The notes: generated by a model not told the origin, from the sequence alone. A stretch of DNA of 64,000 bases from Candidatus Brennerbacteria bacterium (GCA_016183535.1 JACPEK010000002.1:1382-65381), one strand, 5' to 3'; numbered from the stretch's first letter, positions 23,154-61,692 are shown. Numbers and translations are program-made.

Positions 23154-23252
23154 CGGTATGCATAGCAATTGTTTCGCAGGAAAATTTTACAGGTCGTGCG
23201 TTCGCCTCTCGGCGGGCGGATTTGATTCGTTTTGGCGACGGTAATCCGTTAT

Positions 23253-25391
23253 ATGCCACGACTATATCCAATCGAAAGAGTCCGCGATATAGGAATTATC
23301 GCTCACATTGACGCGGGGAAAACCACCGTGTCCGAGCGGGTGCTTTTTTATACCGGCGTCTCGCACAAGATCGGCGAGGTGCACGAAGGCGACACCGTGA
23401 TGGACTGGATGGAGCAGGAGCGTGAGCGCGGGATTACCATCACCTCTGCGGCCACCACTTGTTTCTGGACCCCGACTTATGTAGTGGGCGATCCCTCGAC
23501 GAGCTCGGTACAAGTAAATCATAAGGAACGGGAGCACCGCATCAACCTTATCGACACGCCGGGCCACATCGACTTCACGGTCGAGGTGAAGCGGTCGCTT
23601 CGCGTGCTGGACGGCGCGGTGGTGGTATTCGACGGCGTGGCGGGCGTGGAACCGCAGTCCGAAACCAACTGGCGCTATGCGGATGAGTACCATGTGCCAC
23701 GCGTCTGTTTTATTAATAAACTCGATCGGATGGGCGCAAATTTCGAGCATGACATCCAATCTATCCGCGAGCGGCTCACCACAAATCTTGCGATCCTTCA
23801 GCTTCCCATTGGCATCGAAGGAACGTTCGAGGGGGTGGTGGATTTGCTTACGCGCACCGCATACCGTTTCGAAGGAGAGCGGGGCGAGCGGATCGTAAAA
23901 GGAGAAATTCCCGCAGATATGAAAGAATCGGTGGAGCGGTATCGCCACGAGCTCATCGAAAAAATAGCGGAGACCGACGACGCGCTTCTCCACGAATATT
24001 TGGAAGGAAAGGAACCCTCTCTCGAAGCGCTCAAGAAAGCGCTTCGAGCCGCAACCTTGAAGGTACGCTTGGTGCCGATTCTTTGCGGCTCGGCGCTCAA
24101 GAACAAGGGCGTCCAGCTTGTCTTGGACGCTGTGGTGGATTACCTCCCGTCTCCCGTTGATCTTCCGCCGGTCAAAGGAACACATCCTGATACGCATGCT
24201 GAAGAAACGCGCATGCCGTCCGACGATGAACCGTTCGCGGCCTTAGCGTTCAAGATCGCCGCGGATCCGTTCGTGGGGTCCTTGACCTATTTCCGCGTTT
24301 ATTCGGGCATCATGAAACGGGGAAGCTACATTTTGAACGCGACGAAGGGATCGCAGGAACGGGTGGGGCGCATCATGCGGATGCACGCGAACCATCGCGA
24401 AGAGGTGGAAGAGATTTATGCGGGAGATATTGGCGCCATTGTGGGGCTCAAGAACACCACGACGGGGGACAGTTTGGTGGATCCCGCGAAACCCATCGCG
24501 CTCGAGCGCATCACGTTCCCCGAGCCGGTTATCACTATTCGTATCGAGCCGAAAACGAAAGCCGACCAGGAGAAGATGGGTGTTGCGCTCCGGCGTCTCG
24601 CCGAGGAGGATCCCACGTTCCGCGTGTCGGGCGACGCGGAAACGGGCGAGACTCTCATTGCGGGCATGGGTGAACTGCATCTCGAGATCATCGTGGATCG
24701 CATGAAGCGCGAGTTCAATGTGGAAGCGAATGTAGGGCGTCCGCAGGTGGCGTACAAGGAAACCATCAAGGGGAAAGCCGATGCGGAAGGCAAATATATT
24801 CGCCAGTCGGGTGGTCGCGGTCAGTACGGTCATGTGAAGATCAGAGTGGAACCTATGGAACGCGGGAAGGGGTATGAGTTTGTGGACGAGATCAAGGGCG
24901 GCGCGATTCCGCATGAATTCATCGCGCCCGTAGAGAAAGGTTTGGAGGAGGCTACCGGGAAGGGTGTGCTTGCGGGGTACCCGATGACGGACTTGAAAGT
25001 GACGCTCTACGACGGGTCGTACCATGACGTTGATTCTTCGGAATTTGCTTTCAAAATCGCGGCTTCGATGGCGCTCCAAGAAGCCACTAAAAAGGCAAAG
25101 CTCGTGCTGCTTGAGCCGGTGATGAAGGTGCAGGTTATCGCGCCCGACCAGTTTTTGGGAGACGTGACAGGTGATCTCTCCTCGCGGCGCGCGAAGATTA
25201 CCGCAATGGGAGAGCGTGGCATGGCGCGTGTAGTGGACGCGGACGTGCCATTAGCCGAGATGTTCGGCTATGTGACAAATTTGCGTTCAATGACGCAGGG
25301 ACGCGGATCGTTCACGATGGAATTTAGTCATTATGACGAAGTTCCCGGAAACGTTGCCCAGCAGGTAATCGAAGGAAGAATCAAGAAGTAG
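23253..25391 (+). CDS. fusA: Elongation factor G
   Basis: G1 [10 protein letters not shown]3 DTPGH, domains II-V (GELHLEI, EPVMKV). Start set at MPRLYP (23253); the ORF track begins at 23232. Confidence 0.93.
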
Positions 25392-25513
25392 GGAATAAAC
25401 TCCATCGCGTATCATGTTCAGGGAATGCCGGCGCAGGAAGCGCGCCGGCGCTTTGTTATTGACGGGCGGCGCAGAGATGTTATTTTTCTTCTTAGTAATT
25501 TTGGGAGGTTTTC

Positions 25514-25900
25514 ATGGAAGATCAACTTGCGCGCATGCATTATCTGCGCGCCTTGCACCGCGCGAAGACCGCGGCGCGTATTTTGGAACTTCTCGCGCAA
25601 GGGAACGCGCTCAAGCGTTTCGAGGCGTGGGATTGCGGCGGAAAGAACGGAGCCGCAATAAAAAACCGCGTGGCGACGGTATTCGAAACGTCCCGCACGC
25701 GCGTGTTCATTAGGCTGGCTCATGCGACCTCGTTACGGCGAATTTCCATCACGCTCCGTTGCGTGGGAACGGGTACGCGCCGCATCCGCTGGAGGAAAAT
25801 CCACAAACTCTCCTCTCGTAACGTATTTTTTTGGAACGCTTCCGTGGACTTTTTCACGAAGGTGTATGCGGAGGCGGTCCGGAGCCATTTCAGTTGTTGA
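25514..25900 (+). CDS. Hypothetical small protein encoded in the fusA-tuf spacer
   Basis: GGGAGG Shine-Dalgarno 7 nt upstream of the ATG. 128 aa, basic, no recognisable domain. An intrinsic terminator follows immediately. Confidence 0.3.
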   Translation: MEDQLARMHYLRALHRAKTAARILELLAQGNALKRFEAWDCGGKNGAAIKNRVATVFETSRTRVFIRLAHATSLRRISITLRCVGTGTRRIRWRKIHKLSSRNVFFWNASVDFFTKVYAEAVRSHFSC

Positions 25901-25903
25901 GTT

Positions 25904-25934
25904 GCGCCATCCCGAAAAAGGGATGGCGTTTTTT
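25904..25934 (+). terminator. Rho-independent terminator
   Basis: GCGCCATCCC-GAAAAA-GGGATGGCG followed by TTTTTTG. Confidence 0.7.
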
Positions 25935-26089
25935 GAATGGGGTTGACAGTTTTTCGCGGATACGCGAGTATGGAGTGGCCAACGCAAACGTTCCCCTTTA
26001 CAGTCGAAAAGGGAGTGAATATGAATCAGTTGTTAGCGATTAGTTTGAGGGGTTGAAAACTAAAAGCTAAAAACGAGAAACTAATTTTT

Positions 26090-27289
26090 ATGGCAGAGAA
26101 AGCGAAGTTTGAACGGACGAAGCCTCACGTGAATGTGGGGACCATCGGGCACGTCGACCACGGCAAGACCACCTTGACGGCGGCGATGACGCACGTGCTC
26201 TTTATGAAAGGTCTGACGAAGAAGGAGGAGAAGGTAGACATGATCGACAACGCGCCCGAAGAAAAGGCGCGCGGCATCACGATCGCCCTCCACCACTCCG
26301 AGTATGAATCCGAGAAGCGTCACTATGCGCACGTGGATGCGCCCGGTCACGCGGACTACATCAAGAACATGATCACGGGCGCCGCGCAGATGGACGGCGC
26401 GATTCTCGTGGTTTCGGCCGCGGACGGCCCTATGCCGCAGACGCGCGAACACATTCTTTTGGCGCGTCAGGTTGGCGTGCCGGCCATCGTGGTGTTTCTC
26501 AATAAAGTTGACATGGTGGACGACAAGGAGCTTGTTGACCTCGTGGAATCCGAGGTGCGGGAACTCTTGAAAAAATATCAGTTTCCGGGCGACACGACCC
26601 CGGTGATCCGGGGATCAGCCTTAAAGGCGCTCGAATCAAATTCGGCGGACTCGGAAGAGGCAAAGCCGATCTTGGAACTCGTGAAAGCAATCGATGAGTT
26701 CATTCCCGAGCCGGTTCGCGACAAAGATAAGCCGTTCCTCATGCCGATCGAAGATATTTTCTCCATCGAGGGCCGCGGTACCGTCTGCACGGGCCGCGTC
26801 GAGCGGGGGATTTTGAAGGTGAACGACGAGATGGAAATTATCGGTCTCAAGCCGACCCAGAAAACAGTAGTGACGGGCGTCGAGATGTTCCAAAAGACTT
26901 TGGATGAAGCGCAGGCGGGCGACAACGTGGGTATTCTCCTCCGTGGATTGAAGAAGGAAGATGTGGAGCGCGGGCAGGTTATCGCAAAACCGGGATCGGT
27001 CACGCCCCACACGGAGTTCGAAGCGGAGGTATATGTACTCTCGAAGGAAGAGGGCGGCCGACACACACCGTTCTTCAAGGGTTACAAGCCGCAGTTCTAC
27101 ATTCGCACGACTGACGTGACAGGCGAGGTGATTCTTCCCGCGGGTGTCGAGATGGTGATGCCGGGCGATACCGTGTCAATCACCGTGAAACTTATCGCGC
27201 CCGTCGCGCTCGAGGAAAAGCAGCGTTTTGCGATCCGCGAGGGAGGCAAGACGGTGGGTGCGGGTGCGGTGACGAAGATTCTTAAATAA
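26090..27289 (+). CDS. tuf: Elongation factor Tu
   Basis: [28 protein letters not shown]. 399 aa. Confidence 0.97.
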
Positions 27290-27348
27290 ACACTAACGTC
27301 GCGAACCGTTCGTGATATTCGTGGGGTTGTTCGTGAACATTCACGGTA

Positions 27349-27681
27349 ATGAAAAAGAAAGAAGCTGAAGTTCATAAGGAACGCATCCGCCTTCGGGTGA
27401 AATCTTACGACGCGAAGCTCATCGACAATTCGGTGCGCCAAATCATCGAGGCTATTCGGCGGCAGGGAGGCGAAGTGATTGGGCCCACGCCGCTCCCCAC
27501 CGAATTTAAGAAGTACACCGTGAACCGCTCGACTTTCGTGCACAAGAAATCGCGCGAAGCTTTCGAACTGCGGGTCCATAAGCGTATTCTTGACATTCTG
27601 AATCCCGATCCAAAAACGGTTGAATCACTCTCCGATCTTAATTTACCTGCCGGGGTGGATGTTGAGATTAAAATGAGTTGA
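27349..27681 (+). CDS. rpsJ: 30S ribosomal protein S10
   Basis: IRLRVKSYDAKLID...GPTPLPT...VHKKSREAFELRVHKRILDI. Confidence 0.93.
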   Translation: MKKKEAEVHKERIRLRVKSYDAKLIDNSVRQIIEAIRRQGGEVIGPTPLPTEFKKYTVNRSTFVHKKSREAFELRVHKRILDILNPDPKTVESLSDLNLPAGVDVEIKMS

Positions 27682-27879
27682 TCGTTTTGCGACATTGTTC
27701 TGAACAACTCCGACCTTAGGTTGGAGTCGTTCTTTTTTGAGAAGTAGGGCTTGACGGTATCACCTCTTTCGGATAGGATAATGAGGCTTTAGGAGGCACT
27801 CGTGAAACATCGAAACCACCCGCCTGAAGCGCGGGTATTTTTATTCGGTTCGGGAAATTTCGCGAGCCGGGGTGGAAGT

Positions 27880-28317
27880 ATGGTAAAAATAGCGGCTACC
27901 AAAGTGAACATGACGACGATTTGGAAAAGCGACGAGGCAATACCCGTCACGGCTCTTATGATTTCCGCGACGGTCGCACCGGAGACCTGGGATGATCTTC
28001 AAGAAGGGAAGCGGATCGCGGTCGCGGGTACGAGCAAGGGTAAGGGATTTCAGGGCGTCGTGAAGCGTCACGGGTTCCACGGCGGGCCGAAGAGCCACGG
28101 TCAAAAAGACCGACTTCGCGCGCCCGGTTCTTTGGGCCCCACCGCGCCACAGCGCGTTCTTCCCGGGCGTAAAATGGCCGGGCACATGGGAAACGCGCGA
28201 GTGACGACGAAGAATCTCTCCATTGTTGAGAGTAAGAAAGACGCTCGTCTTCTTTTTGTGCGGGGCGCGGTGCCGGGTCCGCGGGGAGGAAAGGTGGAAA
28301 TCAAGATAGTGCAATAG
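27880..28317 (+). CDS. rplC: 50S ribosomal protein L3
   Basis: [12 protein letters not shown]...[17 protein letters not shown]. An alternative GTG start at 27802 with an AGGAGG RBS would add a 26-aa extension. Confidence 0.9.
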
Positions 28318-28324
28318 TCACGGT

Positions 28325-28954
28325 ATGACGACAACGGCGGACATATTCAATCAAGCGCATGAGAAAGTGGGAACGGTGGAACTCCCCGCCGGCCTCTTTG
28401 GCGCACGGTGGGCCCCACGTACGGTGCACCAGGTGGTGACGGCGTTTATGGCAAACCAGCGCAACGTAGTCGCGCACGCGAAGGGGCGGAGCGAAGTCGC
28501 GGGCGGAGGAAAGAAACCGTGGAAACAGAAGCACACCGGTCGCGCGCGGCACGGATCCCGCCGGTCTCCATTGTGGCGGGGTGGGGGCGTCACCCATGGG
28601 CCTCTTACGTCGCGCGATTTTTCAAAAAAAGTGAACGGTGGCATGAAGCGCGCGGCGCTTCGTGCCGTACTTTCGAAAAAAATGAAGGACGGGGAGATAA
28701 TGATACTCGATACGCTCGCCTTGCCGGCGGCGAAGACTAAAACAGTCGCAGGGCTCATAAGGAATTTCGGTGCAAACTCCACGCTTTTCGTTTCCGCAAA
28801 ACCCGCCCCGGCGCTCGCGCGCGCCAGCCGGAACATCGGGAAAGTTGATGCGATAAGTGCCGCCGATCTGCACGCCTATGTGTGTGTGGCGCACCGTACG
28901 CTTCTTGTCGAAAAACATGCATTGGAAGTCTTAAAAAAGCGTTTGGGAAAATAA
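28325..28954 (+). CDS. rplD: 50S ribosomal protein L4
   Basis: GGGKKPWKQKHTGRARHGSRRSPLWRGGGVTHGP. Confidence 0.93.
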   Translation: MTTTADIFNQAHEKVGTVELPAGLFGARWAPRTVHQVVTAFMANQRNVVAHAKGRSEVAGGGKKPWKQKHTGRARHGSRRSPLWRGGGVTHGPLTSRDFSKKVNGGMKRAALRAVLSKKMKDGEIMILDTLALPAAKTKTVAGLIRNFGANSTLFVSAKPAPALARASRNIGKVDAISAADLHAYVCVAHRTLLVEKHALEVLKKRLGK

Positions 28955-28969
28955 AAATTTTAGAAAAGT

Positions 28970-29383
28970 ATGGGAATTTTTTCCAAGAAAACAAAAAAAG
29001 ATGAAGCTCGTCCCGTTCAGGGTCGCGCGCGCGATTCCGTTGCACACGCCTCCGGGACCGCTTCCGCGCCCGCCCGCCGAAACGTCGGCACGGGCGGCGC
29101 TCCTTTGAGCGAAATGCGTCGTGTGTTGGTTCGCCCGCGCGCGAGTGAAAAAAGCACGCGGCTTGAAGGAAAGAATGTCTACGTGTTCGTGGTGCGTGAC
29201 GAGGCGAACAAGCGGTCGGTAAGAGAAGAAGTGGAGCGCCGGTATGGCGTGAGAGTGACGCGTGTGAACATTGTGCGGCGCCGCGCGGCGCGCCGATTTT
29301 TCCACGGGCGGACTCACGAAGGAATTATTACGAAGAAAGCGTTGGTGACCCTCGTGAAGGGTGCCGTCATTAATCTTAAATAA
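28970..29383 (+). CDS. rplW: 50S ribosomal protein L23 with a ~45-aa N-terminal extension
   Basis: L23 core VLVRPRASEKSTRLEGKNVYVFVVRDEANKRSV. Confidence 0.85.
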   Translation: MGIFSKKTKKDEARPVQGRARDSVAHASGTASAPARRNVGTGGAPLSEMRRVLVRPRASEKSTRLEGKNVYVFVVRDEANKRSVREEVERRYGVRVTRVNIVRRRAARRFFHGRTHEGIITKKALVTLVKGAVINLK

Positions 29384-29384
29384 T

Positions 29385-30209
29385 ATGAAGACCTACCATC
29401 CCACCACGCCTTCGCGCCGCCACATGCAGGGGATCGACTACCGGATCCTCACCGTGACAGAGCCGTGGAAACCGCTTACCAAGCGCCTTGTTGCTCGCGC
29501 AGGTCGCAACCATCATGGCCGCATCACCATGCGTCACCAAGGAGGTGGCAACAAGAAACTCTACCGCGTGGTGGATTTTAAAATGGAAAAGCGGAACATT
29601 CCCGCGCGCGTTGAAACCATCGAATACGATCCGTACCGCACCGCGTTTATCGCGCGGATTATCTACCGCGATGGGGCGCGTCGCTATATTCTCGCGCCAC
29701 AAGGACTCGCGGTGAGGGATACGATCGTCGCGGCTCCCGAAGCTCCTTTGAAACCGGGGAATCGGTTGGAGCTTCGGCGCATTCCGGTCGGCACTTTCAT
29801 CCATAACGTGGAAATATTTCCCGGCCGCGGAGGCGCGCTCGCCCGCTCTGCGGGCGCCTCATTGCAGGTACTCGCGAATGAAGATCGATATACCCACCTC
29901 AAGATGCCTTCGGGCGAGGTTCGAAAAGTGCTCGCGCGCGGATATGCCTCCGTGGGGGCGGTCTCAAATCCCGAGCATTCGTTCGTCGCGATAGGCAAGG
30001 CGGGGCGTTCCCGATGGCTTGGCGTGCGTCCTACCACCCGCGCAAAAGCCATGAACCCGCGCGATCACAAATATGGCGGCGGTGAAGGAAGCACTCAACG
30101 CGGCACCAAGCGTCCAAAGGATAAATGGGGTAATATTACGGGCGGGCGGAAAACCCGCAACAAGAAAAAGTGGTCGCGCGCGCTCATTGTTTCCCGCCGC
30201 CGGCGATAA
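29385..30209 (+). CDS. rplB: 50S ribosomal protein L2
   Basis: MKTYHPTTPSRRH..., GRNHHGRIT, K/R-rich C-terminus. Confidence 0.95.
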   Translation: MKTYHPTTPSRRHMQGIDYRILTVTEPWKPLTKRLVARAGRNHHGRITMRHQGGGNKKLYRVVDFKMEKRNIPARVETIEYDPYRTAFIARIIYRDGARRYILAPQGLAVRDTIVAAPEAPLKPGNRLELRRIPVGTFIHNVEIFPGRGGALARSAGASLQVLANEDRYTHLKMPSGEVRKVLARGYASVGAVSNPEHSFVAIGKAGRSRWLGVRPTTRAKAMNPRDHKYGGGEGSTQRGTKRPKDKWGNITGGRKTRNKKKWSRALIVSRRRR

Positions 30210-30218
30210 TTTTCAGCC

Positions 30219-30533
30219 ATGACTCGTCCTCAACGAAAAGGTCCGTGGGTGGACCCAAAACTCGTAAAAAAGATTGCCGGGAAAAACCCGGGAGAAGCCG
30301 CGCCGATTAAGACTTGGTCGCGGGATTCGGAAATCGCTCCGGAGATGGTGGGCTTTACTTTTCTCGTCCACAACGGGAAAGAGTTCCTCCCCGTCCCCGT
30401 TTCCGAAGATATGGTCGGTCATCGCTTGGGCGAATTCTCGCCAACGCGCAAATTCGTGAAGCACGGCGGAAAAATGCAACGCGAGCTTGAAACCTCCGCG
30501 GCGCAGAAAGCTGCCCCGGCCGCGAAAAAATAA
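30219..30533 (+). CDS. rpsS: 30S ribosomal protein S19
   Basis: [14 protein letters not shown]...[30 protein letters not shown]. Confidence 0.93.
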
Positions 30534-30548
30534 AATCATATCATTATC

Positions 30549-31058
30549 ATGACTTCTTCCGCACACGCCTATCTTCGCTATCTTCGCGCCGCGCCGCGCA
30601 AAACGCGCGCGGTAGCTGATGTCATTCGCGGTCTCTCGGTTTCAGAAGCCGAAGCCCAGCTTTTACTCATGTCCCGCAGCGCCGCGATGCCAATTCTAAA
30701 ACTCCTCCGTTCCGCGGCGGCGAACGCACGAGTGGTTTTAAAACGGGAACCGCACGCGCTTTTCGTGAAGGAGATAAGAGTGGATCAAGGGCCAAAATCG
30801 AAGCGGTGGATGCCCCGCGCGCGCGGCGCCATGAGCCCCATTGAACGAAAAACAAGTCATGTATCTATCGTGCTCGGCATGCTCGCCGCGCCAAAACCCG
30901 CGCGATTCACAATCAAGGAAGCGGTGAAACCGCAGGAAAAAACGGGCGGGAAAAAGACGGGTACGCGGGAGCATGACCATGTCCATGAGGAGCGCGAGGG
31001 ACAAGAGAGCGAAAAAAGAGGTTTTGCGAAGCGCGTATTTCGCCGGAAAGCTGTATGA
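30549..31058 (+). CDS. rplV: 50S ribosomal protein L22 with a C-terminal extension
   Basis: L22 fold AHAYLRYLRAAPRKTRAVADVIRG; lysine-rich tail. Confidence 0.88.
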   Translation: MTSSAHAYLRYLRAAPRKTRAVADVIRGLSVSEAEAQLLLMSRSAAMPILKLLRSAAANARVVLKREPHALFVKEIRVDQGPKSKRWMPRARGAMSPIERKTSHVSIVLGMLAAPKPARFTIKEAVKPQEKTGGKKTGTREHDHVHEEREGQESEKRGFAKRVFRRKAV

Positions 31059-31166
31059 CGAATATTCACGAATTATGAACACGAATATCACAAATAATTA
31101 TCGCCCATCGCCCATGCCCGTTCGCGGCATTCGTGGAAGCCATTCGTGTACATTAGTGTTTTAAAC

Positions 31167-31895
31167 ATGGGACAAAAAGTAAAACCGAACGCTTATCGTA
31201 TTGGCATCAGTCTCCCGTGGCAGAACCGCTGGTTCTACCACAAAAACCTCCGCTACTTTTTGGAGGAGGATTTTCATATTCGCCGCTACCTTCGCGAGAA
31301 AGTGCTCCAGGCGGGTATTGCATCGATCGAGATAGAGCGGACGAGTGGCGCGATCCGGGTTATAGTCCGTGCCGCGCGTCCCGGACTCATCATCGGCCGC
31401 GGCGGAAAGGGCATTGAGGAATTGCGGGCGGGACTTTTGGAAACCATTAAGAAATGCCGGCGCGGCGCGAAAATCGGCGTAGTGCCCGCCCGCGCATCAG
31501 GATCGGGCGGCACGGCGGTTTTGAATCTCAACCTTAACATCGAAGAGTTGAAACGATCCGATGTTTCCGCGGCGGTAGTCGCCCAGCAGGTGGCGTTCGA
31601 CATCGAAAAGCGACTCCCATTCCGGCGGGTTATGAGACGAACTCTTGAGACGACTATGCAGAACCGCGAAGCGCAGGGAGCGAAAATCCGTCTCTCGGGC
31701 CGCCTGAATGGCGCGGAAATATCGCGTAACGAATGGCTCGCGAAAGGGCGCATGCCGCTCCAGACGCTCCGTGCAAACGTTGATTATGGGGAGGCCACCG
31801 CCTTCAACACCTACGGCACGATTGGGGTGAAGATATGGATTTATAAAGGCGATGTATTTGAAAAGAAAAATGATCGCGAATCGGCGCGAATGTGA
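31167..31895 (+). CDS. rpsC: 30S ribosomal protein S3
   Basis: MGQKVKPNAYRIGISLPWQNRWF, KH domain. Confidence 0.95.
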   Translation: MGQKVKPNAYRIGISLPWQNRWFYHKNLRYFLEEDFHIRRYLREKVLQAGIASIEIERTSGAIRVIVRAARPGLIIGRGGKGIEELRAGLLETIKKCRRGAKIGVVPARASGSGGTAVLNLNLNIEELKRSDVSAAVVAQQVAFDIEKRLPFRRVMRRTLETTMQNREAQGAKIRLSGRLNGAEISRNEWLAKGRMPLQTLRANVDYGEATAFNTYGTIGVKIWIYKGDVFEKKNDRESARM

Positions 31896-31916
31896 CCATT
31901 GTGAATATTGGTAAAC

Positions 31917-32330
31917 ATGTTACAGCCAAAGAAACAAAAATTTCGCAAACAGCAAAAAGGACGCTCGCGCCGCCGCCTTGTCGAGACGCGCGGCACCACG
32001 CTTGGTTATGGGCGTTTCGGGCTTCAGGCCACTTCCGCCGCGTGGGTAACCGGCAATCAGATTGAAGCGGCGCGCAAAGCGGTGAGCCACACGCTCGCGA
32101 AGGAAGGTAAGATGTGGATCCGTATTTTTCCCGACAAACCCATTACCAAGCTCCCGCCCGAGGTTACCTTAGGAGGAGGCAAGGGTGAGGTGGATCACTA
32201 TGTGTTTCCGGTGAAGCCGGGTCGCATCCTTTTCGAAATTGACGGCGTGAAAGAAGAAACTGCGCGCGCGGCGTTGAGACGCGCAGGGTTTAAACTTCCG
32301 GTCGGTACCCGGGTGGTGGTCAAATCTTGA
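31917..32330 (+). CDS. rplP: 50S ribosomal protein L16
   Basis: MLQPKKQKFRKQQKGR...; an alternative TTG start exists at 31908. Confidence 0.93.
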   Translation: MLQPKKQKFRKQQKGRSRRRLVETRGTTLGYGRFGLQATSAAWVTGNQIEAARKAVSHTLAKEGKMWIRIFPDKPITKLPPEVTLGGGKGEVDHYVFPVKPGRILFEIDGVKEETARAALRRAGFKLPVGTRVVVKS

Positions 32331-32333
32331 GCT

Positions 32334-32546
32334 ATGAAAACGAAGGAACTCATCGCTCGCCGCGGGAAGAATGCGGAGGATCTCATGAAAGAGATTCGCG
32401 AGCTTGCGGCGCGGAAAGAAACGCTCCAATTTGACTTAGCGGCGGGCAAAGTGAAGAATATACGCGAAATTCGGCAAGTGAAGAAAAGCATCGCTCAACT
32501 CAAAACACTCCTCAAGGAGGGGCGAGTGATAAAAATTAAAACATGA
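32334..32546 (+). CDS. rpmC: 50S ribosomal protein L29
   Basis: 70 aa helical hairpin, ELRELAARKETLQFDLAAGK. Confidence 0.9.
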   Translation: MKTKELIARRGKNAEDLMKEIRELAARKETLQFDLAAGKVKNIREIRQVKKSIAQLKTLLKEGRVIKIKT

Positions 32547-32791
32547 GAACGCTCATCGGCATCGTTGTTTCCGATAAAATGAAAAAAACCCGCGTGGTGG
32601 AAGTGACGCGGATCAAACAACACCCTCGTTACGAAAAACGGTATGAAGCAACGGCGAGCTTCAAGGCGCACGACGAACGCGAAGAATACCATGCGGGGGA
32701 CAAGGTGGTTATTAAAGAAATCCGGCCGATGAGCAAGGACAAACGTTGGGTAATTATAGGAAAATCCGAAGCACAAAACCCTAAATCTTAA
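32543..32791 (+). CDS. rpsQ: 30S ribosomal protein S17
   Basis: GIVVSDKMKKTRVVEVTRIKQHPRYEKRY...GDKVVIKEIRP. Confidence 0.92.
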   Translation: MRTLIGIVVSDKMKKTRVVEVTRIKQHPRYEKRYEATASFKAHDEREEYHAGDKVVIKEIRPMSKDKRWVIIGKSEAQNPKS

Positions 32792-32929
32792 ACAAACCAT
32801 AATGACCAAAGCCCGAAATCCCAAACCGTTTGGAACATTCGAATTTCGAATTTGTCCCGACTGCGTCGAGGATACTCGATAAAATCGGTATTTAGGGTTT
32901 AGATATTAGAATTTAGGATTTACCTCAAT

Positions 32930-33295
32930 ATGATTCAAGAAAGAGCGATATTGAAAGTAGCGGACAACAGCGGAGCGAAAACCGTGCGTTGTTTTCGTGT
33001 GCTCGGCGGTTCGCGCAAGCGCTACGCGCGTATCGGCGAGGTATTCGTGGCGTCAGTTCAGACCGCGGAACCGCGGAAGCAGGTGAAGAAAAAAGATGTG
33101 GTGCGGTGCGTGTTGGTGCGGAGCCGTGCGCCGATTCGGCGCCGAGACGGCACCGTGGTTCGTTTCGACGACAATGCCGCGGTCATTATTGAAAAGCAGG
33201 AACCGAAAGGCACCCGCATTTTTGGACCTATCCCGCGCGAGATAAAAGAAAAAGGATACCACACGATCGCGTCGCTTGCCGAGGAACTTGTATAA
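32930..33295 (+). CDS. rplN: 50S ribosomal protein L14
   Basis: MIQERAILKVADNSGAK...; 121 aa. Confidence 0.95.
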   Translation: MIQERAILKVADNSGAKTVRCFRVLGGSRKRYARIGEVFVASVQTAEPRKQVKKKDVVRCVLVRSRAPIRRRDGTVVRFDDNAAVIIEKQEPKGTRIFGPIPREIKEKGYHTIASLAEELV

Positions 33296-33385
33296 CGAAT
33301 GACCACGAAGAGCCGCACGGATATCACGAATTATTCAATCATTAGCAAAATTAGTGGATTTATTCGTGTAAATTAGTAAATTTTT

Positions 33386-33697
33386 ATGAAACTAAAAATA
33401 AAAAAAGGCGATACCGTCGTCGTGCTTCGGGGCAAGGATCGCGGGAAGTCGGGTAAAGTGCTCCAGACGGCGCCCTCTCTTGGTCGCATTGTGGTGGAGG
33501 GTTTGAATCTTGCGAAAAAGCACGTGCGGCCGCGGCGGCAGGGAGAAAAAGGAGAAATGGTTTCCGTTCCCCGCGCCGTGCCGGTCGGCGCGGTGGCCCT
33601 CTTCTGCGGAACGTGCAACCGTGGCGTGCGGTTTGGAGTGAAAAAAGAAGAGAAAGATCGCGTCCGCGTGTGTAAGCGTTGCGGGAATTCCATATAA
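33386..33697 (+). CDS. rplX: 50S ribosomal protein L24, variant with a four-Cys (CxxC...CxxC) C-terminal hairpin
   Basis: KOW motif KIKKGDTVVVLRGKDRGKSGKV. The C-terminal FCGTCNRGVRFGVKKEEKDRVRVCKRCGNSI aligns to the usual L24 C-terminal beta-hairpin but carries 4 Cys. Confidence 0.9.
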   Translation: MKLKIKKGDTVVVLRGKDRGKSGKVLQTAPSLGRIVVEGLNLAKKHVRPRRQGEKGEMVSVPRAVPVGAVALFCGTCNRGVRFGVKKEEKDRVRVCKRCGNSI

Positions 33698-33725
33698 GAC
33701 TCATAAGTCCTCTACGTCCCATACA

Positions 33726-34232
33726 ATGACAAAACAATTTCGCAAAGACAATGATTTGGAAAAAATCGTCGTAAATATCGGCGTGGGTCGCGCGCGCACA
33801 CTCCCGCAGTTCGATGAGAAGGTGTTGCCGGAAGTTGCCGCATCGCTTGCGGCCGTTACCGGACAGAAAGCGGCATCGCGCGCCGCCCGGAAAGCGGTGG
33901 CAAGTTTTAAGACGCGGGCGGGTGACGTAGTGGGACTTCAGGTGACGCTTCGGGGCGTTCGTATGCGCGAGTTTCTCACAAAACTTATCCGCATCGTGCT
34001 CCCGCGCGTGAAGGATTTTCGAGGTCTCGACCGCTCGAACGTGGATGCGCGCGGTAATCTCAATGTCGGCATCCGCGAGCAGTATGTGTTTCCCGAGATC
34101 AATCCCGAGAAGTCGAAGGTGTCGTTTGGGTTGCAGATCACAGTTGTGCCGCGGATGCAGAATCGCGCGCGCGCGATCGCATTCTATGAATCTATCGGTA
34201 TGCCATTGAAAAAGGAGGGGGTAAAAGGTTAA
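33726..34232 (+). CDS. rplE: 50S ribosomal protein L5
   Basis: 168 aa L5 signature; position in the spc operon. Confidence 0.93.
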
Positions 34233-34243
34233 TATCAATCGCC

Positions 34244-34429
34244 ATGGCAAAAACATCCGTTGTTGCACGTTCCAAGAAAACACCGAAATATTCCACGCGC
34301 ATAGTGCGCCGCTGTTTTCGGTGCGGGCGCGGGCGCGGCTATCTGCGGGATTTTAACATGTGTCGCATCTGTTTTCGTGAGCTCGCGAGTCGCGGCGAGA
34401 TTCCGGGGGTGAAGAAAGCGTCATGGTAA
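34244..34429 (+). CDS. rpsZ: 30S ribosomal protein S14 type Z (zinc-binding)
   Basis: 61 aa with [20 protein letters not shown]. Confidence 0.93.
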
Positions 34430-34529
34430 GTTACAAATGAGCACGAAATGGACACAAATATCACGAATAGTATTGCGATAGAAACAGTCATTCGTGCCAT
34501 TTGTGGGATTATTCGCGAAGATTAGTACG

Positions 34530-34901
34530 ATGTATATAAATTTTCTCATCCAACTCAAAAACGCGGTGCGCGCGGGCAAAAAATCCGCGAAGTTGCCGTA
34601 CACGGTCACGGATCTTGAAATCGCTAAGACGCTCGCGCGCTATGGATTTCTGCAAAACATTGAAGTGAAGGGCCGCGCGATGAAAAAAATTATCGAGGTT
34701 GAGTTTAACGCCTCTCGCCCCATTCGCGACGTGAAGTTCAAAAGTACGCCTTCTGTGGCGCGTTATGTCGGATATCGCGACGTGAAATCGGTAAAGCAGG
34801 GTCATGGACTGCTTGTAATGACGACCCCGAAGGGAATTCTTGCGGGGCACGAAGCACGGAAGGAACGAGTCGGCGGAAAACTTTTATTTGAAATTTGGTA
34901 A
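34530..34901 (+). CDS. rpsH: 30S ribosomal protein S8
   Basis: MYINFLIQLKNA...LVMTTPKGILAGHEAR. Start moved to the ATG at 34530. Confidence 0.9.
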   Translation: MYINFLIQLKNAVRAGKKSAKLPYTVTDLEIAKTLARYGFLQNIEVKGRAMKKIIEVEFNASRPIRDVKFKSTPSVARYVGYRDVKSVKQGHGLLVMTTPKGILAGHEARKERVGGKLLFEIW

Positions 34902-34927
34902 GGACTCGATTCAAAATCACGACTCAT

Positions 34928-35479
34928 ATGTCAAAAATAGGCAAACAACCAATCATTATTCCCGAGAATGTTACCGCGATGGTCGCGGATGGCGCAGTTC
35001 TGATAAAAGGAAAAAGTGAATCCGTCGCCATCCGGACACTTCCGGGAACCGAGGTAAAAATCAAGGAGGATGCGATTGTGGTTTCCTCCGTCGGGGCCGG
35101 CAAGCAGGCGCGGGCGAACTGGGGTACGCTTCGCGCACTTATCGCGAACGCCATCAAGGGGCAAGTGGAAGGGTTTTCGAAGACGCTCATCCTTGAAGGT
35201 GTGGGGTTCCGCGCCGCGAAAGAAGGAGAAGGACTGGTTTTGAGTCTCGGGTTTTCGCATCCGGTCAATTTTCCCGCGCGCACAGGCATCTCGTTCGAAG
35301 TGGGAAAAAACAACGCCATCACGGTGAAGGGAACCGATAAAGCGCTGGTGGGTCAGGTGGCGGCGGAGATTCGCGCACTTAAGAAGCCGGAACCGTACAA
35401 AGGGAAGGGGTTTCACTACTCGGATGAGGTCGTTCCGAGGAAGGCGGGAAAGAAGGCCGCCGCGTCCGCGGGAAAATAG
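34928..35479 (+). CDS. rplF: 50S ribosomal protein L6
   Basis: MSKIGKQPIIIPENVT...; two L6 alpha/beta repeats. Confidence 0.93.
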   Translation: MSKIGKQPIIIPENVTAMVADGAVLIKGKSESVAIRTLPGTEVKIKEDAIVVSSVGAGKQARANWGTLRALIANAIKGQVEGFSKTLILEGVGFRAAKEGEGLVLSLGFSHPVNFPARTGISFEVGKNNAITVKGTDKALVGQVAAEIRALKKPEPYKGKGFHYSDEVVPRKAGKKAAASAGK

Positions 35480-35482
35480 ACT

Positions 35483-35851
35483 ATGCGCAGAAAGAAACAC
35501 ACGCTCCAAACCGTCCGCGCGCGCCGCGCCTCCCGCGTGCGGAACAAAATAAGGGAAATTAGCGGTCGGGCGCGCCTCTCCATATTCCGGAGCAATCGTT
35601 TTACCGTTGCCCAGCTTATTGACGACGCGACGGGACGCACGTTGGTGTCGGTTTCTTCGCGTGAATTCTCTGCGGGAAACAAAACTTCAGGGACAAAAAC
35701 TGCGATGGCTACCATGGTCGGAAAAACCCTCGCCGATCGCGCGAAAGCGGCCGGTATCGCACAGGCGGCGGTGGATCGGGGAGGATATCGGTACCATGGA
35801 CGAATAAAAGCGCTTGTGGAAGCGGTGCGGGCGGGTGGGCTTTCGGTGTAG
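35483..35851 (+). CDS. rplR: 50S ribosomal protein L18
   Basis: RLSIFRSNRFTVAQLIDD...GGYRYHGRIKALVEAVRAGGL. Confidence 0.92.
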   Translation: MRRKKHTLQTVRARRASRVRNKIREISGRARLSIFRSNRFTVAQLIDDATGRTLVSVSSREFSAGNKTSGTKTAMATMVGKTLADRAKAAGIAQAAVDRGGYRYHGRIKALVEAVRAGGLSV

Positions 35852-35879
35852 AGCATCTCTCTTCGTGTAAATTAATGTT

Positions 35880-36386
35880 ATGCAGAGAACAATGATGAAA
35901 AAAAAGAGCGAGTACGACGAACGCCTCCTTGAAGTGCGGCGGGTGGCGCGCGTGATGGCGGGAGGCAAGCGATTTAGCTTTCGGGCTTCGGTTGTGGTGG
36001 GAGATCGACGCGGAAAAGTGGGATTCGGGATCGGTAAGGGTCTTGATGTGATGAGCGCGGTCGAGAAGGCGAAGCGGCAGGGGGAGAAACGCCTCATTGT
36101 GGTGCCTTTGGTGGAACATCGCACCATTCCGCATGAAATCGACGCAAAGTATGGCGCGGCGCGTGTGCGTCTCAAACCGGCGAAGAAAGGTCACGGACTC
36201 ATCGCGGGTTCGGCGGCCCGCGCGGTGCTAGAACTTGCCGGCGTTCGTGATGTGTCAGCGAAGACCACCGGGCGCACCAAAAATAAAATCGCGAACGCGC
36301 TCGCGGCGCTCGCGGCGCTCGCGGCGCTCCATCCACGAAAGATTCGGAAGGAAGAGACGGCAAATCCGAAATTTGAAACGGTCTGA
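35880..36386 (+). CDS. rpsE: 30S ribosomal protein S5 (in-frame ALAALAALAAL repeat near the C-terminus)
   Basis: VVVGDRRGKVGFGIGKG, GSAARAVLELAGV. The C-terminus contains a 9-nt tandem repeat GCGCTCGCG x3 (36295-36330). Confidence 0.92.
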   Translation: MQRTMMKKKSEYDERLLEVRRVARVMAGGKRFSFRASVVVGDRRGKVGFGIGKGLDVMSAVEKAKRQGEKRLIVVPLVEHRTIPHEIDAKYGAARVRLKPAKKGHGLIAGSAARAVLELAGVRDVSAKTTGRTKNKIANALAALAALAALHPRKIRKEETANPKFETV

Positions 36387-36415
36387 AGAATAGAATTTAA
36401 ATTTTTTACGAACAT

Positions 36416-36832
36416 ATGCAACTTCATCAATTATCTCCTCAATTGAGGAGAAAAAAAGAAAAGCGGGTGGGTCGCGGCGGCAAGCGCGGAAAAACCGCCG
36501 GCCGCGGCGAGAAAGGGCAGGGTGCTCGTGCGGGACATCGCATTCGGCCCGCCGAGCGGGATCTCATCCAGCGGATTCCGAAACTGCGCGGCATGAAAAA
36601 TCGCCGCATTTCAAACCCGCCGTCGGTGGTAAAAACAGGCGACTTGACCCGTTTTGAGGGGAATGAAGTGACGCGCGCGGCGCTCGCGGCGCAAGGGTTC
36701 ATTCCGCGGGCGGGTGAGAGGGTGAAAATCGTGCGTGGCGGCAGGCTTGTACGAGCGCTTATCATAAAAGACATTCCGGTTTCGGCGGGCGCGAAGGAGG
36801 CGATCGAAACGGCGGGCGGAAAAGCGGCATGA
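36416..36832 (+). CDS. rplO: 50S ribosomal protein L15
   Basis: RRKKEKRVGRGGKRGKTAGRGEKGQ. It directly follows rpsE, so no rpmD (L30) gene is present. Confidence 0.92.
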   Translation: MQLHQLSPQLRRKKEKRVGRGGKRGKTAGRGEKGQGARAGHRIRPAERDLIQRIPKLRGMKNRRISNPPSVVKTGDLTRFEGNEVTRAALAAQGFIPRAGERVKIVRGGRLVRALIIKDIPVSAGAKEAIETAGGKAA

Positions 36833-38100
36833 ATAGGATTCTACAAATATTCAAAATACCGGACCTTCGCAAGAAAGTACTTGCGGTACTGGGGCTTCTC
36901 GTGGTGTTTCGCGCGCTCGCCGCGATTCCGATTCCCGGCATCGACGCGACGCGGCTCGAGGAATTTTTTTCTTCGAACCAACTCTTTGGATTTCTGAATA
37001 TCTTCTCGGGCGGAGGACTTGACAATCTTTCCATTATGATGCTTGGTGTTACTCCCTATATCACGGCGACCATCATTATGCAACTTCTCACCATCATCTT
37101 TCCGAATCTCAAAAAGTATTACTACGAGGAGGGTCCCGAGGGTCGCGCCAAATTCAATCGCATCTCACGCTGGCTCACGGTGCCCTTGGCGGTGCTCCAA
37201 GGATATGGATTTTTGAACCTTTTGAAATCGCAGGGTGTGTTGGGCGAGCTTTCCTTGTTCGAGCTTATAACGAACGTGGTGGTGATCAGCGCGGGGAGCG
37301 TGGTGTTGATGTGGCTCGGCGAGCTCATCACGGAATATAAGATCGGCAACGGCATTTCTTTCCTTATCTTTGCCGGCATCGTGTCGGGTCTCCCGCAGGC
37401 GGTGATTTCCGCGGCGGTGAACTACCAATCTTCGATGATCCCGACTTATCTTGCGTACGTTATCCTCGCGGTGATTGTCGTGGCGGGCGTGGTGTTTGTG
37501 AACGAAGCGGAACGGAAGATTCCGGTCGCGTACGCAAAGCAGGTGCGCGGGAACCGCATGTACGGCGGCGCCCAGACCTACCTGCCGCTCAAGGTGAACC
37601 AGGCGGGTGTAATTCCTATCATCTTCGCGGTTTCCCTACTCCTCTTCCCGCAATTTTTGGCGCAGGCGGCGGCGATTTTCTCGCCCGATCTCTCGATTCG
37701 TTTGAACGAGCTTGTGGGCAGATTCCTCGGGAGCGTAACGGTGTATAGCGCTTTATATTTTGTGCTCGTGGTGCTCTTCACATATTTCTACACCGCGGTA
37801 ACGTTCGATCCGGAGGAAATTGCGAAGAATCTTCAGAAGAGCGGGGGATTCATTCCGGGCATCCGTCCGGGTGAACAGACTTCTGCCGCGATCGGGAAGG
37901 TGGTCCATCGCACGACGCTCTTCGGCGCGCTTTTCTTGGGTGTGGTTGCCATCCTTCCGAATCTCACCCAGATTGTAACGGGGATCCAGGCCCTGACGAT
38001 CGGTGGCACCGCGCTCCTCATTGTGGTGGCGGTGGCGCTCGAGGTGTTGAAGCAGGTGGAAAGTCAGCTTACGGTGCGCGAGTACGAGGGGATTTTTTAG
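36829..38100 (+). CDS. secY: Protein translocase subunit SecY
   Basis: 423 aa, 10 TM helices, GITPYITA and GNGISFLIFAGIV motifs. Confidence 0.95.
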   Translation: MNRILQIFKIPDLRKKVLAVLGLLVVFRALAAIPIPGIDATRLEEFFSSNQLFGFLNIFSGGGLDNLSIMMLGVTPYITATIIMQLLTIIFPNLKKYYYEEGPEGRAKFNRISRWLTVPLAVLQGYGFLNLLKSQGVLGELSLFELITNVVVISAGSVVLMWLGELITEYKIGNGISFLIFAGIVSGLPQAVISAAVNYQSSMIPTYLAYVILAVIVVAGVVFVNEAERKIPVAYAKQVRGNRMYGGAQTYLPLKVNQAGVIPIIFAVSLLLFPQFLAQAAAIFSPDLSIRLNELVGRFLGSVTVYSALYFVLVVLFTYFYTAVTFDPEEIAKNLQKSGGFIPGIRPGEQTSAAIGKVVHRTTLFGALFLGVVAILPNLTQIVTGIQALTIGGTALLIVVAVALEVLKQVESQLTVREYEGIF

Positions 38101-38212
38101 CTCGCTCGGCACCCCTCCTCATCAGGCGGCCTTCTCCGGGGCGACGCCCAAATCTCAGCCTTCTTCGTAGGGACTTTGATGGGATACTGAAGTTATATAG
38201 AATATATCCACC

Positions 38213-38914
38213 ATGCATAAACAAGCGGTGATTCTCTACGGGCCTCCCGGGGCGGGAAAGGGGACGCAGGCGGAGCTTCTCGCGCGCCGGTATGGATTCG
38301 TCCATTTCGACGGCGGGCGTGTTATTGAGGCCATCGTCCATGCGCCGGGAGCGGAAAAGAGCTCGGTGCTTCGGCGGCAGCGCGCGCTTTTCGACTCCGG
38401 CAAAATGTGCGACCCCGAATGGTTTTTGGGCACGGTGAAAGAAATGTCCGCACGCATCGCAGGGTCCGGCTCAAGCGTGGTTTTCAGCGGTGCGTTCCGT
38501 ACCGACTTTGAGGTATTCGGCGGGAATGGCCGAAAGGGTCTTCTCGAGACACTCATCAAGCTTTATGGAAAAAAGAACGTGCATGTGGTGATGCTCTCCA
38601 TTCCGCCCAAAGATTCCATCCACCGGAACTCGCTCCGCAAGGTATGCACGGTGTGCGGCCTCCAGCAACTTCCGGGAAGCAAGCATCCGCGCTGCCTTTT
38701 CTGCGACGGGCCTATGCGGGTGCGAAGTTTGGATAGTCCCTCGGTCATCAAAGAGCGTTTGAAGGTGTATCACGCGAAGGCGGTGCCGATTCTTACGAAG
38801 CTCAAGCGCCATGGTGTGCGCGTCGTAACGGTGCGCGGCACGTCCGCGCCGTACAAGGTTTTCCAGGGTGTACTGAAAGCGTTGAAACTTCCGCCACTCC
38901 AACTTAAAAAATAA
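38213..38914 (+). CDS. adk: Adenylate kinase (long-lid form with a Cys4 zinc knuckle)
   Basis: P-loop GPPGAGKGTQ; lid CTVCG...CLFCDG. Confidence 0.9.
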   Translation: MHKQAVILYGPPGAGKGTQAELLARRYGFVHFDGGRVIEAIVHAPGAEKSSVLRRQRALFDSGKMCDPEWFLGTVKEMSARIAGSGSSVVFSGAFRTDFEVFGGNGRKGLLETLIKLYGKKNVHVVMLSIPPKDSIHRNSLRKVCTVCGLQQLPGSKHPRCLFCDGPMRVRSLDSPSVIKERLKVYHAKAVPILTKLKRHGVRVVTVRGTSAPYKVFQGVLKALKLPPLQLKK

Positions 38915-39672: not shown

Positions 39673-39733
39673 CGGCTGGGGTATAGTGGCCCGCGGATCT
39701 TTTTATTTTATTTTTCCAACGAAAGGAGTCTTC

Positions 39734-44414: not shown

Positions 44415-44462
44415 AAGTTATACACAAACTCCTGCGGGAGCGGGCGATATAATTAAAGAGAA

Positions 44463-50398: not shown

Positions 50399-50515
50399 GA
50401 AAAATTCATGCCCTCCCACGGCGCGATCATCGAAGAAAGCCCGTAGCCCTCATTCGCCAATTCGCGCGAATAAGCGAATAGTTCCCGCCGTCCAGTTTTG
50501 AGGTAGAATGTGGTC

Positions 50516-61652: not shown

Positions 61653-61692
61653 AGAAGGAAAAGAAAGCTTAACGATACGACGGTGCGGGGCG

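Follow-up and report, generated by a model that had tools for sequence, protein, structure and literature searches.

Lineage-specific palindromic heptamer repeats as the probable source of long spacers in the ribosomal-protein operons of a Candidatus Brennerbacteria bacterium

Genes and repeats at the locus

The ribosomal-protein cluster treated here lies in a 64,000-nucleotide stretch of DNA (the window) from Candidatus Brennerbacteria bacterium (GCA_016183535.1 JACPEK010000002.1:1382-65381), a member of the Parcubacteria within the Candidate Phyla Radiation (CPR). Several intercistronic spacers of this cluster are unusually long and contain arrays of CACGAAT-type heptamers facing inverted ATTCGTG-type heptamers. 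The spacers are homologous to each other, dispersed and lineage specific, and are not conserved leaders. Sequence comparison favors their interpretation as recent insertions of a single dispersed, non-coding palindromic repeat family, with a probability of about 0.6. Such a family would resemble the repetitive extragenic palindromic (REP) sequences and their hairpin-forming doublets (REPINs), the miniature inverted-repeat transposable elements (MITEs) and the Rickettsia palindromic elements (RPEs).

The original prediction, made from the sequence alone, placed long spacers before rpsJ, rpsC, rplX and rpsH, and these are present at 27290-27348, 31059-31166, 33296-33385 and 34430-34529. It missed the long rpsQ-rplN spacer at 32792-32929 and a full copy within recG at 2267-2352. 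The gene map of the window was derived from NCBIfam and Pfam scans; the genes around the spacers, all called with NCBIfam, are as follows.

26090-27289: tuf
27349-27681: rpsJ, followed in order by rplC, rplD, rplW, rplB, rpsS and rplV (30549-31058)
31167-31895: rpsC, followed by rplP and rpmC
32543-32791: rpsQ
32930-33295: rplN
33386-33697: rplX, followed by rplE
34244-34429: rpsN
34530-34901: rpsH, followed by rplF and rplR

Five homologous copies (E1 to E5), one of them intragenic, and one related palindrome are counted within the 64 kb.

2267-2352, minus strand: E1, full copy inside recG; nhmmer score of 76.5 on the minus strand versus 39.3 on the plus strand
27290-27348, plus strand: E2, tuf-rpsJ spacer; short degenerate copy with CACTAAC and CGCGAAC on the left and GTTCGTG, ATTCGTG and GTTCGTG on the right; nhmmer 27.3 bits, E value of 4e-7
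31056-31166, plus strand: E3, rplV-rpsC spacer; first heptamer over the TGA stop codon, last heptamer ATTAGTG (31152) ending 8 nt before the ATG
33293-33385, plus strand: E4, rplN-rplX spacer; first heptamer over the TAA stop codon, ATTAGTA (33372) ending 7 nt before the ATG
34430-34529, plus strand: E5, rpsN-rpsH spacer; ATTAGTA (34521) ending 2 nt before the ATG
32792-32929, plus strand: rpsQ-rplN palindrome (inverted repeat I7), built from a different heptamer, CCCTAAAT on the left and ATTTAGG, GTTTAGA, TATTAGA, ATTTAGG and ATTTACC on the right

Anatomy of the repeat family

The heptamer CACGAAT occurs 24 times on both strands of the window, compared to 11.9 ± 3.3 times in shuffled sequences, and none of 100 shuffles reaches 24, which bears out the earlier claim that the heptamers recur beyond chance. 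The entire excess falls into five clusters (2267-2352, 27290-27348, 31056-31166, 33293-33385 and 34430-34529), with all other hits at chance level. A full copy spans ∼85 to 110 nt, with four left CACNAAT-type heptamers and four inverted ATTNGTG-type heptamers on either side of a variable loop. The left consensus reads TNACRAAT, CACGAA, CACNAAT and CACGAAT, and the right one reads ATTCGTG, ATTYGTG, ATTCGYG and ATTMGT. The heptamer starts are mirror symmetric, with distances of 10, 12 to 13 and 9 nt in the left arm and 9, 12 to 13 and 10 nt in the right arm. E1, E3, E4, E5 and the recG copies of two further species can be aligned from end to end and share this 4+4 architecture, indicating one homologous family instead of the chance recurrence of a word. 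An nhmmer profile built from this alignment finds only E1 to E5 in the window.

The earlier description of the spacers holds in part. Paired CACGAAT and ATTCGTG heptamers are found in the rpsC, rplX and rpsH spacers; the tuf-rpsJ spacer has one exact ATTCGTG and no exact CACGAAT. The inner arms are separated by 42, 30 and 21 nt, not by the 30 to 60 nt given before. An ATTAGT element described as lying 4 to 12 nt before the ATG is indeed found there, at 9, 8 and 3 nt, and is missing from the tuf-rpsJ spacer. It is not an element of its own: ATTAGT is the outermost, degenerate heptamer of the right arm (ATTAGTG or ATTAGTA).

The rplN-rplX and rpsN-rpsH spacers are base-identical in the independent Logan assemblies L001 and L002. 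Logan contigs break within the rpsQ-rplN palindrome, and rpsQ and rplN abut or overlap in relatives. The placement of the copies is not random: before insertion, the region from rpsL to map accounted for only ∼13% of the non-coding DNA of the window, yet it contains all five intergenic copies. With the profile, the sense strand relative to the host gene always scores higher, by 3 to 12 bits for copies outside the training set; pairwise alignments disagree on the orientation of E1 versus E3 and E4. The orientation of the repeat may follow the host gene, which is suggestive only.

The same junctions in related genomes

Nine relatives (L003, L005 to L008 and L129 to L132), whose S3 proteins are 56 to 77% identical to that of the window, were compared at the same junctions; the closest other genomes show 71 to 77% identity in S3. 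The junctions of the relatives measure ∼0 to 15 nt and contain no Shine-Dalgarno (SD) sequence, and none of the nine carries a copy of the repeat. In L008 they read TAA-tcaca-ATG, TAA-ataaagatct-ATG, TAG-acatgacc-ATG and TAA-acacacc-ATG; in L129 to L132 they are 0 to 15 nt long. The tuf-rpsJ junction overlaps or measures 5 nt in L129, L131 and L008, the rplV-rpsC spacer measures 12 nt in L008 and 5 nt in L129, and the rplN-rplX and rpsN-rpsH spacers measure 4 to 9 nt and 1 to 7 nt in relatives, respectively. Since these junctions are tight and free of copies, the elements are insertions in the lineage of the window. The original prediction had named a lack of conservation in relatives as what would speak against its reading, and alignment across related genomes shows just this, the spacers being missing in nine of nine. 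The inserts reach from the upstream stop codon, which is overlapped by E3 and E4, to 2 to 8 nt before the next ATG.

A second genome, the metagenome-assembled genome WY2.bin82 (L004), belongs to a more distant CPR bacterium with 63% identity in S3. Six near-identical elements of ∼135 nt and of a TACGAAT type precede rpsG, rplB, rpsS, rpsC, rplP and rpmC, each ending in GTAGAGAAAT-NN-ATG. This family starts with CTACGAA and ends with TTCGTAG. Further palindromes of the CACGAAT, CGCGAAT and TTTAAAT types are located before rplD, rplV and rpsJ. Judged by its elements, the operon of this genome has been colonized independently.

An unrelated palindromic insert, ATGAATCCCGTTAGAAA…TTTCTAACGGGATGAAA, is situated right at a ribosomal-protein start codon in two other CPR genomes, at ∼11133-11268 before rpmC in L008 and at ∼6818-6945 before rplC in L006. 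The ATG is apparently duplicated at both ends of the two inserts.

The copy in recG

The recG gene occupies 1682-3835 on the minus strand. E1, with heptamers at 2274, 2284, 2296 and 2305 in one arm and at 2315, 2324, 2335 and 2345 in the other, lies in frame, contains no stop codon and encodes TNEHELDANTTNDIREIRARIREYSLLE. The peptide is located between VVCPRI and LEMKNVTEEYEKL, in a variable linker of RecG. A TN…IREIR…IRE peptide is present at this linker in 6 of 40 aligned homologues, and the linker of the others is ∼12 residues shorter. A seventh homologue (P0005) carries a degenerate peptide outside the motif used for this count. The carriers are scattered in a neighbor-joining tree.

At the DNA level, five species show intact, in-frame heptamer arrays at the recG site with differing sequence between the heptamers; the copies in L134 to L137 appear to be orthologous. 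One species encodes the host motif CPRI as CCACGAATA, which itself contains a heptamer. E1 is far closer to the recG copies of other species than to the spacer copies of its own window, so the recG copy appears old and vertically inherited, with nucleotide constraint or repeated conversion.

Distribution in metagenomes and phages

The pattern CACGAAT-N1-13-CACGAAT-N2-32-ATTCGTG matches at least 120 metagenome stretches. Among the matches listed, the G+C content ranges from 0.32 to 0.72, and a typical array reads TTAGC-CACGAAT-n-CACGAAT-loop-ATTCGTG-n-ATTCGTG-GCTAA and repeats every 8 to 11 nt; the arrays lie between tandem genes in 43 cases, between convergent genes in 16, between divergent genes in 10 and within crude calls of open reading frames (ORFs) in 17. 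One locus is assigned to a flavobacterium because of its Flavo-1 RNA. Loci of 8 kb or more hold about one cluster each, with 43 isolated heptamers versus 46.5 expected, and the density in the two CPR ribosomal-protein operons is therefore exceptional. The idea of a DNA-uptake sequence was rejected, as isolated heptamers occur no more often than by chance, both in the window and across 381 kb from other loci, and a resemblance to DnaA boxes or parS was dropped by eye because only CAC is held in common.

Viral contigs contain 54 stretches that match the CACGAAT pattern, 24 of them on both strands, and 33 stretches with TACGAAT, 4 on both strands. For two control heptamers of equal composition, 0 of 100 and 0 of 25 stretches show matches on both strands. 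Phage contigs L168, L175 and L185 of IMG/VR (G+C content of 0.60), which carry HK97-type head genes, have arrays in nearly every intergenic gap, with up to six heptamers per arm and two arrays separating the gene for the prohead protease from that for the major capsid protein. In other phages (L332 and L338), contiguous TACGAAT heptads stand ∼25 nt before the SD sequence and ATG of several genes. A BLAST search of the consensus element against plasmids and phages gave four weak hits, none of them annotated. A limited search of the accessible literature found nothing relevant on such elements in CPR bacteria (Patescibacteria) or on the heptamers.

A larger conserved unit is found in six loci (L011, L058, L088, L103, L107 and L116), in which the CACGAAT hairpin stands between ggcagggcagaccgtc and gacggttttctcagcaaattatc…cttgtgatggtaggt. 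This unit has no match in Rfam and may be an undescribed structured RNA or the end of a mobile element.

Comparison with known repeat families

The elements share features with several described systems. As in the REP sequences, bacterial interspersed mosaic elements and REPINs of proteobacteria, which are mobilized by REP-associated tyrosine transposases (RAYTs), they are short, imperfect, non-coding palindromes that are apparently dispersed and mostly intergenic, often located in operons. Inverted doublets are a further likeness, and a transcribed REP hairpin can stabilize or punctuate mRNA. In contrast to REP sequences, the arms are tandem arrays of heptamers, the family in the window has no GTAG head, one copy is intragenic, and no RAYT is encoded by the scanned ORFs of the window.

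RPEs are likewise found in frame in protein genes, adding a peptide at a tolerant site that is kept across species, and the recG copy is such an in-frame palindrome in an intact conserved gene. The organism, sequence and architecture differ, and most of the copies described here are intercistronic; the likeness is a descriptive one. MITEs such as the Correia elements of Neisseria (Correia repeat enclosed elements, also termed Neisseria miniature insertion sequences) are ∼100 to 150 bp long, have inverted ends, lie adjacent to genes and are cotranscribed. Correia elements act as RNase III targets, promoters or terminators. The elements of the window have inverted arms but show neither the TA target duplication nor a defined terminal inverted repeat or a target-site duplication of any other kind, no parent insertion sequence was found, and the heptamer periodicity is foreign to Correia elements.

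Mycobacterial interspersed repetitive units also occupy intercistronic operon spacers from a stop codon to the next start codon and are oriented with transcription. They are direct tandem repeats with small overlapping ORFs for translational coupling, contrary to the palindromes without an ORF found here. The heptads of the omega repressor of inc18 plasmids and the stoperators of cluster A mycobacteriophages are likewise arrays of sequence-specific sites, 7 or 13 nt long and both direct and inverted, the phage sites being scattered through short intergenic operon gaps. Unlike these systems, no cognate repressor has been found, the arms are separated by a loop, and the heptamers start 9 to 12 nt apart instead of being contiguous, apart from the TACGAAT arrays of some phages.

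Two further palindromes are present in the window. A second family, CAC-AACATTC-n-AACATTC-TGCA-GAATGTT-n-GAATGTT-GTG, directly follows stop codons at 12625-12664, 16799-16824, 61291-61330, 61599-61666 and 63393-63426; among the matches listed, IMG/VR phage contigs with AACATTC arrays are very frequent. A third, small palindrome, CTCATTCGCCAATTCGCGCGAAT…, is found in non-coding gaps upstream of genes at 50452-50479 and 54180-54211.

Origin and possible function of the spacer repeats

Insertion of a dispersed repeat would be tolerated at these junctions if, as the sequence suggests, the organism initiates translation largely without SD pairing. Most genes of the window lack an SD motif, and Parcubacteria, according to a published survey, frequently have no anti-SD sequence. 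The last bases of each insert, directly before the ATG, are rich in A and U. When transcribed, an insert could form four 7-bp helices with symmetric internal loops, in other words, an irregular intercistronic hairpin. Such a hairpin might bring the stop and start codons close together or act as a stabilizing site or as a processing site of the RNase III type. The inserts would then not be conserved feedback sites for ribosomal proteins.

Several genes (those downstream of the sequences before 12778, 38213, 50516, 53002 and others) show a TAnAAT box 6 to 9 nt before the ATG. Together with the missing SD motifs, these boxes suggest that leaderless or nearly leaderless mRNAs may be frequent in this organism.

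Several results weigh against the insertion of a dispersed, hairpin-forming repeat. NCBIfam and Pfam scans of the ORFs in the window reveal no transposase or RAYT, and no target-site duplication is visible at E3 to E5 or at five aligned copies of L004, so mobility is deduced from the distribution of copies only. The copy count covers the 64-kb window. A purely selfish model does not account for the concentration of copies in the ribosomal-protein operons of two genomes. At identical residues of the recG copies, third-codon-position identity in the right arm amounts to 0.6 to 1.0 (0.75 to 1.0 in 9 of 10 species pairs), compared to 0.6 to 0.8 in the left arm and 0.40 to 0.56 in the rest of the gene. 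This comparison covers 10 to 13 codons per arm and is consistent over ten species pairs; it indicates nucleotide-level constraint or conversion, which is unexpected for junk DNA.

The proposed hairpin is weakly supported. Fold z-scores of the window copies are mixed (+0.36, -0.27, -1.7 and -3.5): E3 and E4 fold no better than shuffled sequences, and E5 is the only copy with a clearly non-random fold (z-score of -3.5). RNAalifold, recommended in the original prediction as a check for covariation, yields a weak consensus of -8.65 kcal/mol, in which the covariation term is +1.55 and a single pair is compensatory, and the alignment fold pairs the heptamers out of register without support from covariation. 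The antisense strand folds better than the sense strand in the CPR copies; among 73 copies that other contigs carry in tandem context, the sense strand has a slight advantage. Hence, there is no clear strand-specific RNA signal. Rfam searches at gathering thresholds (window and 26 loci) and at permissive settings (25300-39800) detect, apart from the Flavo-1 RNA mentioned above, a c-di-GMP riboswitch elsewhere and a spurious Trp_leader, only tRNAs.

The rival explanations differ in how they deal with these observations. The arrays may be binding sites for a trans-acting DNA- or RNA-binding protein, several protomers of which would occupy one helix face and, as a complex, modulate transcription or translation across the junctions of highly expressed operons. 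The spacing agrees with this idea, as heptamer starts are about one helical turn apart (9 to 12 nt in the window and 8 to 11 nt, with a peak at 9 to 10 nt, in the at least 120 metagenome copies), and so do the retention of the heptamers while the sequence between them diverges, the conserved synonymous sites of the recG right arm, the both-strand arrays of CACGAAT and TACGAAT with none for the two control heptamers, and the phage contigs with arrays in almost all gaps. Variant middle bases are also seldom compensated in the mirror arm (2 of 41 variants), a count biased by locus selection; this mirror-pair test was not accepted as evidence, given that three perfect heptamers are demanded by the search pattern. 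Against a dedicated binding protein, no candidate was found, and a comparison of the window with the array-rich phage contigs yields no shared protein, only generic LexA and methylase similarity. Moreover, the arrays are missing at the same junctions in all close relatives, copies also occur between convergent genes and in coding sequence, and other genomes combine the same architecture with different heptamers, which fits a structural or mobile element better than one conserved regulator. Binding sites of this kind are thus considered unlikely. A related possibility, viewed as rather unlikely on the available sequences, is that the arrays are a functional, sequence-specific cis-element for an unseen factor at the junctions of highly expressed operons. 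Such an element would set processing, termination or reinitiation in the SD-less ribosomal-protein operons of CPR bacteria and in phage head-gene operons, and it would explain the concentration in ribosomal-protein operons, the docking just before start codons and the synonymous conservation in recG.

Internal promoters giving leaderless or nearly leaderless transcripts of rpsC, rplX, rpsH and rplN are improbable. The TAnAAT boxes of other genes without an SD sequence are in line with them, and TAGTGT stands exactly 7 nt before the ATG in the rpsC copy, no other copy having a plausible -10 geometry; at the end of the rpsQ-rplN spacer is TAGGAT, identical to the -10 hexamer of the rplC promoter described below, 10 nt before the ATG. 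A consensus scan, however, finds no sense-strand promoter-like site in any element spacer and no -35 element. The rplX copy reads TAGTAA and lacks the T at position 6, the rpsH copy reads TAGTAC and lies 1 nt before the ATG, the recG copy is intragenic, and relatives express the same genes without such sites. The original prediction also proposed operators, or mRNA structures through which L4, S8 or similar proteins would control their own synthesis, a reading that finds no support. The position directly before start codons in ribosomal-protein operons and the capacity to form hairpins speak for such feedback leaders, but all nine relatives lack the elements, a single type of element precedes the unrelated genes for S3, L24 and S8 and is repeated inside recG, the fold is weak and lacks covariation, Rfam gives no match, and the same family is present in phage and unrelated metagenome contigs. 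Feedback leaders are therefore highly improbable.

If the spacers are inserted repeats, as favored here, they occupy one of the most packed and conserved stretches of bacterial genomes, in CPR genomes that are small and have little spare room. The five filled junctions of the window and the nine of the second CPR genome indicate that such junctions can absorb inserts of 60 to 140 nt, which raises the question of how downstream cistrons are translated in organisms apparently relying on stop-start coupling and not on SD sequences. The persistence of the in-frame recG copy in several species, with its synonymous sites under constraint, is a hint that the repeats may not be mere passengers. In practice, repeats of this type break short-read assemblies at marker genes and mislead start-codon calls, as for rplC and rpsC.

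Transcription units and the rplC leader

The transcriptional punctuation of the cluster, namely, terminators after fusA and rpsJ, a promoter and attenuator-like leader before rplC and a promoter before adk, is separate from the repeats. It cuts the cluster into the units rpsL-rpsG-fusA, tuf-rpsJ, rplC to secY and adk-map. The first unit ends at a terminator at 25904-25929, and the adk-map promoter reads TTGATG-16-TAGAAT (38176-38203). Transcription of rpsJ with tuf is known from other lineages, e.g., from the cyanobacterial str operon. The features between rpsJ and rplC are as follows.

27702-27732, plus strand: hairpin of the intrinsic terminator after rpsJ, with T6 behind it at 27733-27738; stem of 13 bp with a single mismatch, -18.3 kcal/mol, z-score of -3.67
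27751-27779, plus strand: sigma-70-type promoter for the unit from rplC to secY, TTGACG-17 nt-TAGGAT
27784-27879, plus strand: rplC leader, with the conserved motif GGGCTTTAGG, a hairpin resembling a terminator (27818-27836) with ATTTTTATT after it, and a hairpin specific to the window over the start region
27880-28317, plus strand: rplC (L3) with a revised start, 145 amino acids

The terminator with T6 and the TTGACG -35-like element, both already noted in the original prediction, are present and conserved among relatives. The site combines a G+C-rich hairpin and T-run with promoter hexamers spaced by 17 nt; an equivalent hairpin and T-run is located 3' of rpsJ in L003, L004, L006, L008, L129, L130 and L131, and the promoter hexamers and their spacing are identical in L008, L129, L130, L131 and L007. 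In relatives, the series of signals consists of the terminator, both promoter hexamers, the invariant GGGCTTTAGG, a second hairpin, a U-run and the rplC ATG. The second hairpin, …AACCCGCC-TNAA-GGCGGGTT…, lies ∼20 nt past GGGCTTTAGG and is kept together with its U-run in 7 aligned sequences.

A conserved GGGCUUUAGG is able to pair with the 5' half and loop of this hairpin in 95.8% of the cells of the leader alignment, and this pairing shows no compensatory or double changes and no excess over shuffled controls. A switch between antiterminator and terminator is plausible from this arrangement. No Rfam family matches the leader, and a Trp_leader hit over the rplC terminators was rejected as spurious. 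The conserved leader is a modest new candidate for a ribosomal-protein attenuator in Parcubacteria. Like the leader of the E. coli S10 operon, which is subject to L4 attenuation, it heads a unit beginning with the genes for L3, L4, L23 and L2 and places a terminator hairpin before the first cistron. In contrast to E. coli, rpsJ is grouped with tuf, so that the leader precedes rplC; there is no similarity in sequence or in Rfam, and the likeness is one of position and hairpin.

The rplC start is most likely the ATG at 27880 and not the GTG at 27802, the start of a long ORF, which falls within the leader. This placement follows from tblastn matches in relatives that begin at about residue 27 of the GTG ORF, from the length of L3 as called in L130 to L132 (142 to 145 amino acids) and from the N termini of L3 in the window and its relatives, which align from MVKIAATK.

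Gene order and other features of the window

The gene content of the window is typical of a bacterium with a small genome and includes pheS, recG, the gene for the CCA-adding enzyme, dnaG, rpoD, alaS, mnmA, comEC, asnS, ndk, rpsL, rpsG and fusA. Downstream of fusA follow the S10/spc cluster up to secY, then adk and map, and finally topA and dprA on the opposite strand.

23232-25391: fusA (NCBIfam)
35880-36386: rpsE (NCBIfam)
36387-36415, plus strand: rpsE-rplO junction of 29 nt without rpmD (L30)
36416-36832: rplO, followed by secY and adk (NCBIfam)
38914-39672: map (NCBIfam)
39686-39991, plus strand: small ORF past map, 101 amino acids with three hydrophobic segments
40029-42296, minus strand: topA, convergent with the array

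The absence of L30 and the interruption of the array after map, both claimed in the original prediction, are confirmed. The 29-nt gap between rpsE and rplO leaves no rpmD, as is characteristic of the CPR ribosome gene set, and a tblastn search of the window with E. coli L30 gives no match. According to a published survey, L30 is missing from all CPR bacteria, whose S5 and L15 genes are neighbors (10.1101/2022.01.07.475337). After map, the membrane-protein ORF of 101 amino acids and the convergent topA take the place of further ribosomal-protein genes. Searches by tblastn with IF1, L36, S13, S11, S4 and L17 of E. coli gave no match in the window or in six related loci, with S10 and S14 detected and L29 detected weakly as positive controls, so that short proteins could escape. 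The order map, small ORF, topA and dprA, the latter two on the minus strand, is identical in four Brennerbacteria-like relatives (L129 to L132), which makes the break a clade-wide gene order and no peculiarity of this genome. The absence of L30, the break after map and the terminator and promoter before rplC are thus ordinary for the clade.

The 700-nt gap between fusA and tuf (25392-26089) contains, besides the strong terminator given above, an ORF of 128 amino acids without a family match; in the relatives L129 and L131 the gap holds one or two genes, including one for a DUF5667 protein. The product of ndk (20431-21006) comprises 191 amino acids and is matched by the Pfam profile in two stretches, suggesting an insertion or extension compared to typical nucleoside diphosphate kinases. 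In the tRNA-Ala region (44280-44423), two direct repeats of the tRNA 3' end (GGTCCACCAAAGTTAT) lie downstream of the gene and look like integration scars. A stretch of lower G+C content further downstream (47893-49431) encodes a LexA DNA-binding domain and an S24 peptidase domain fused to an N6/N4 DNA methylase.

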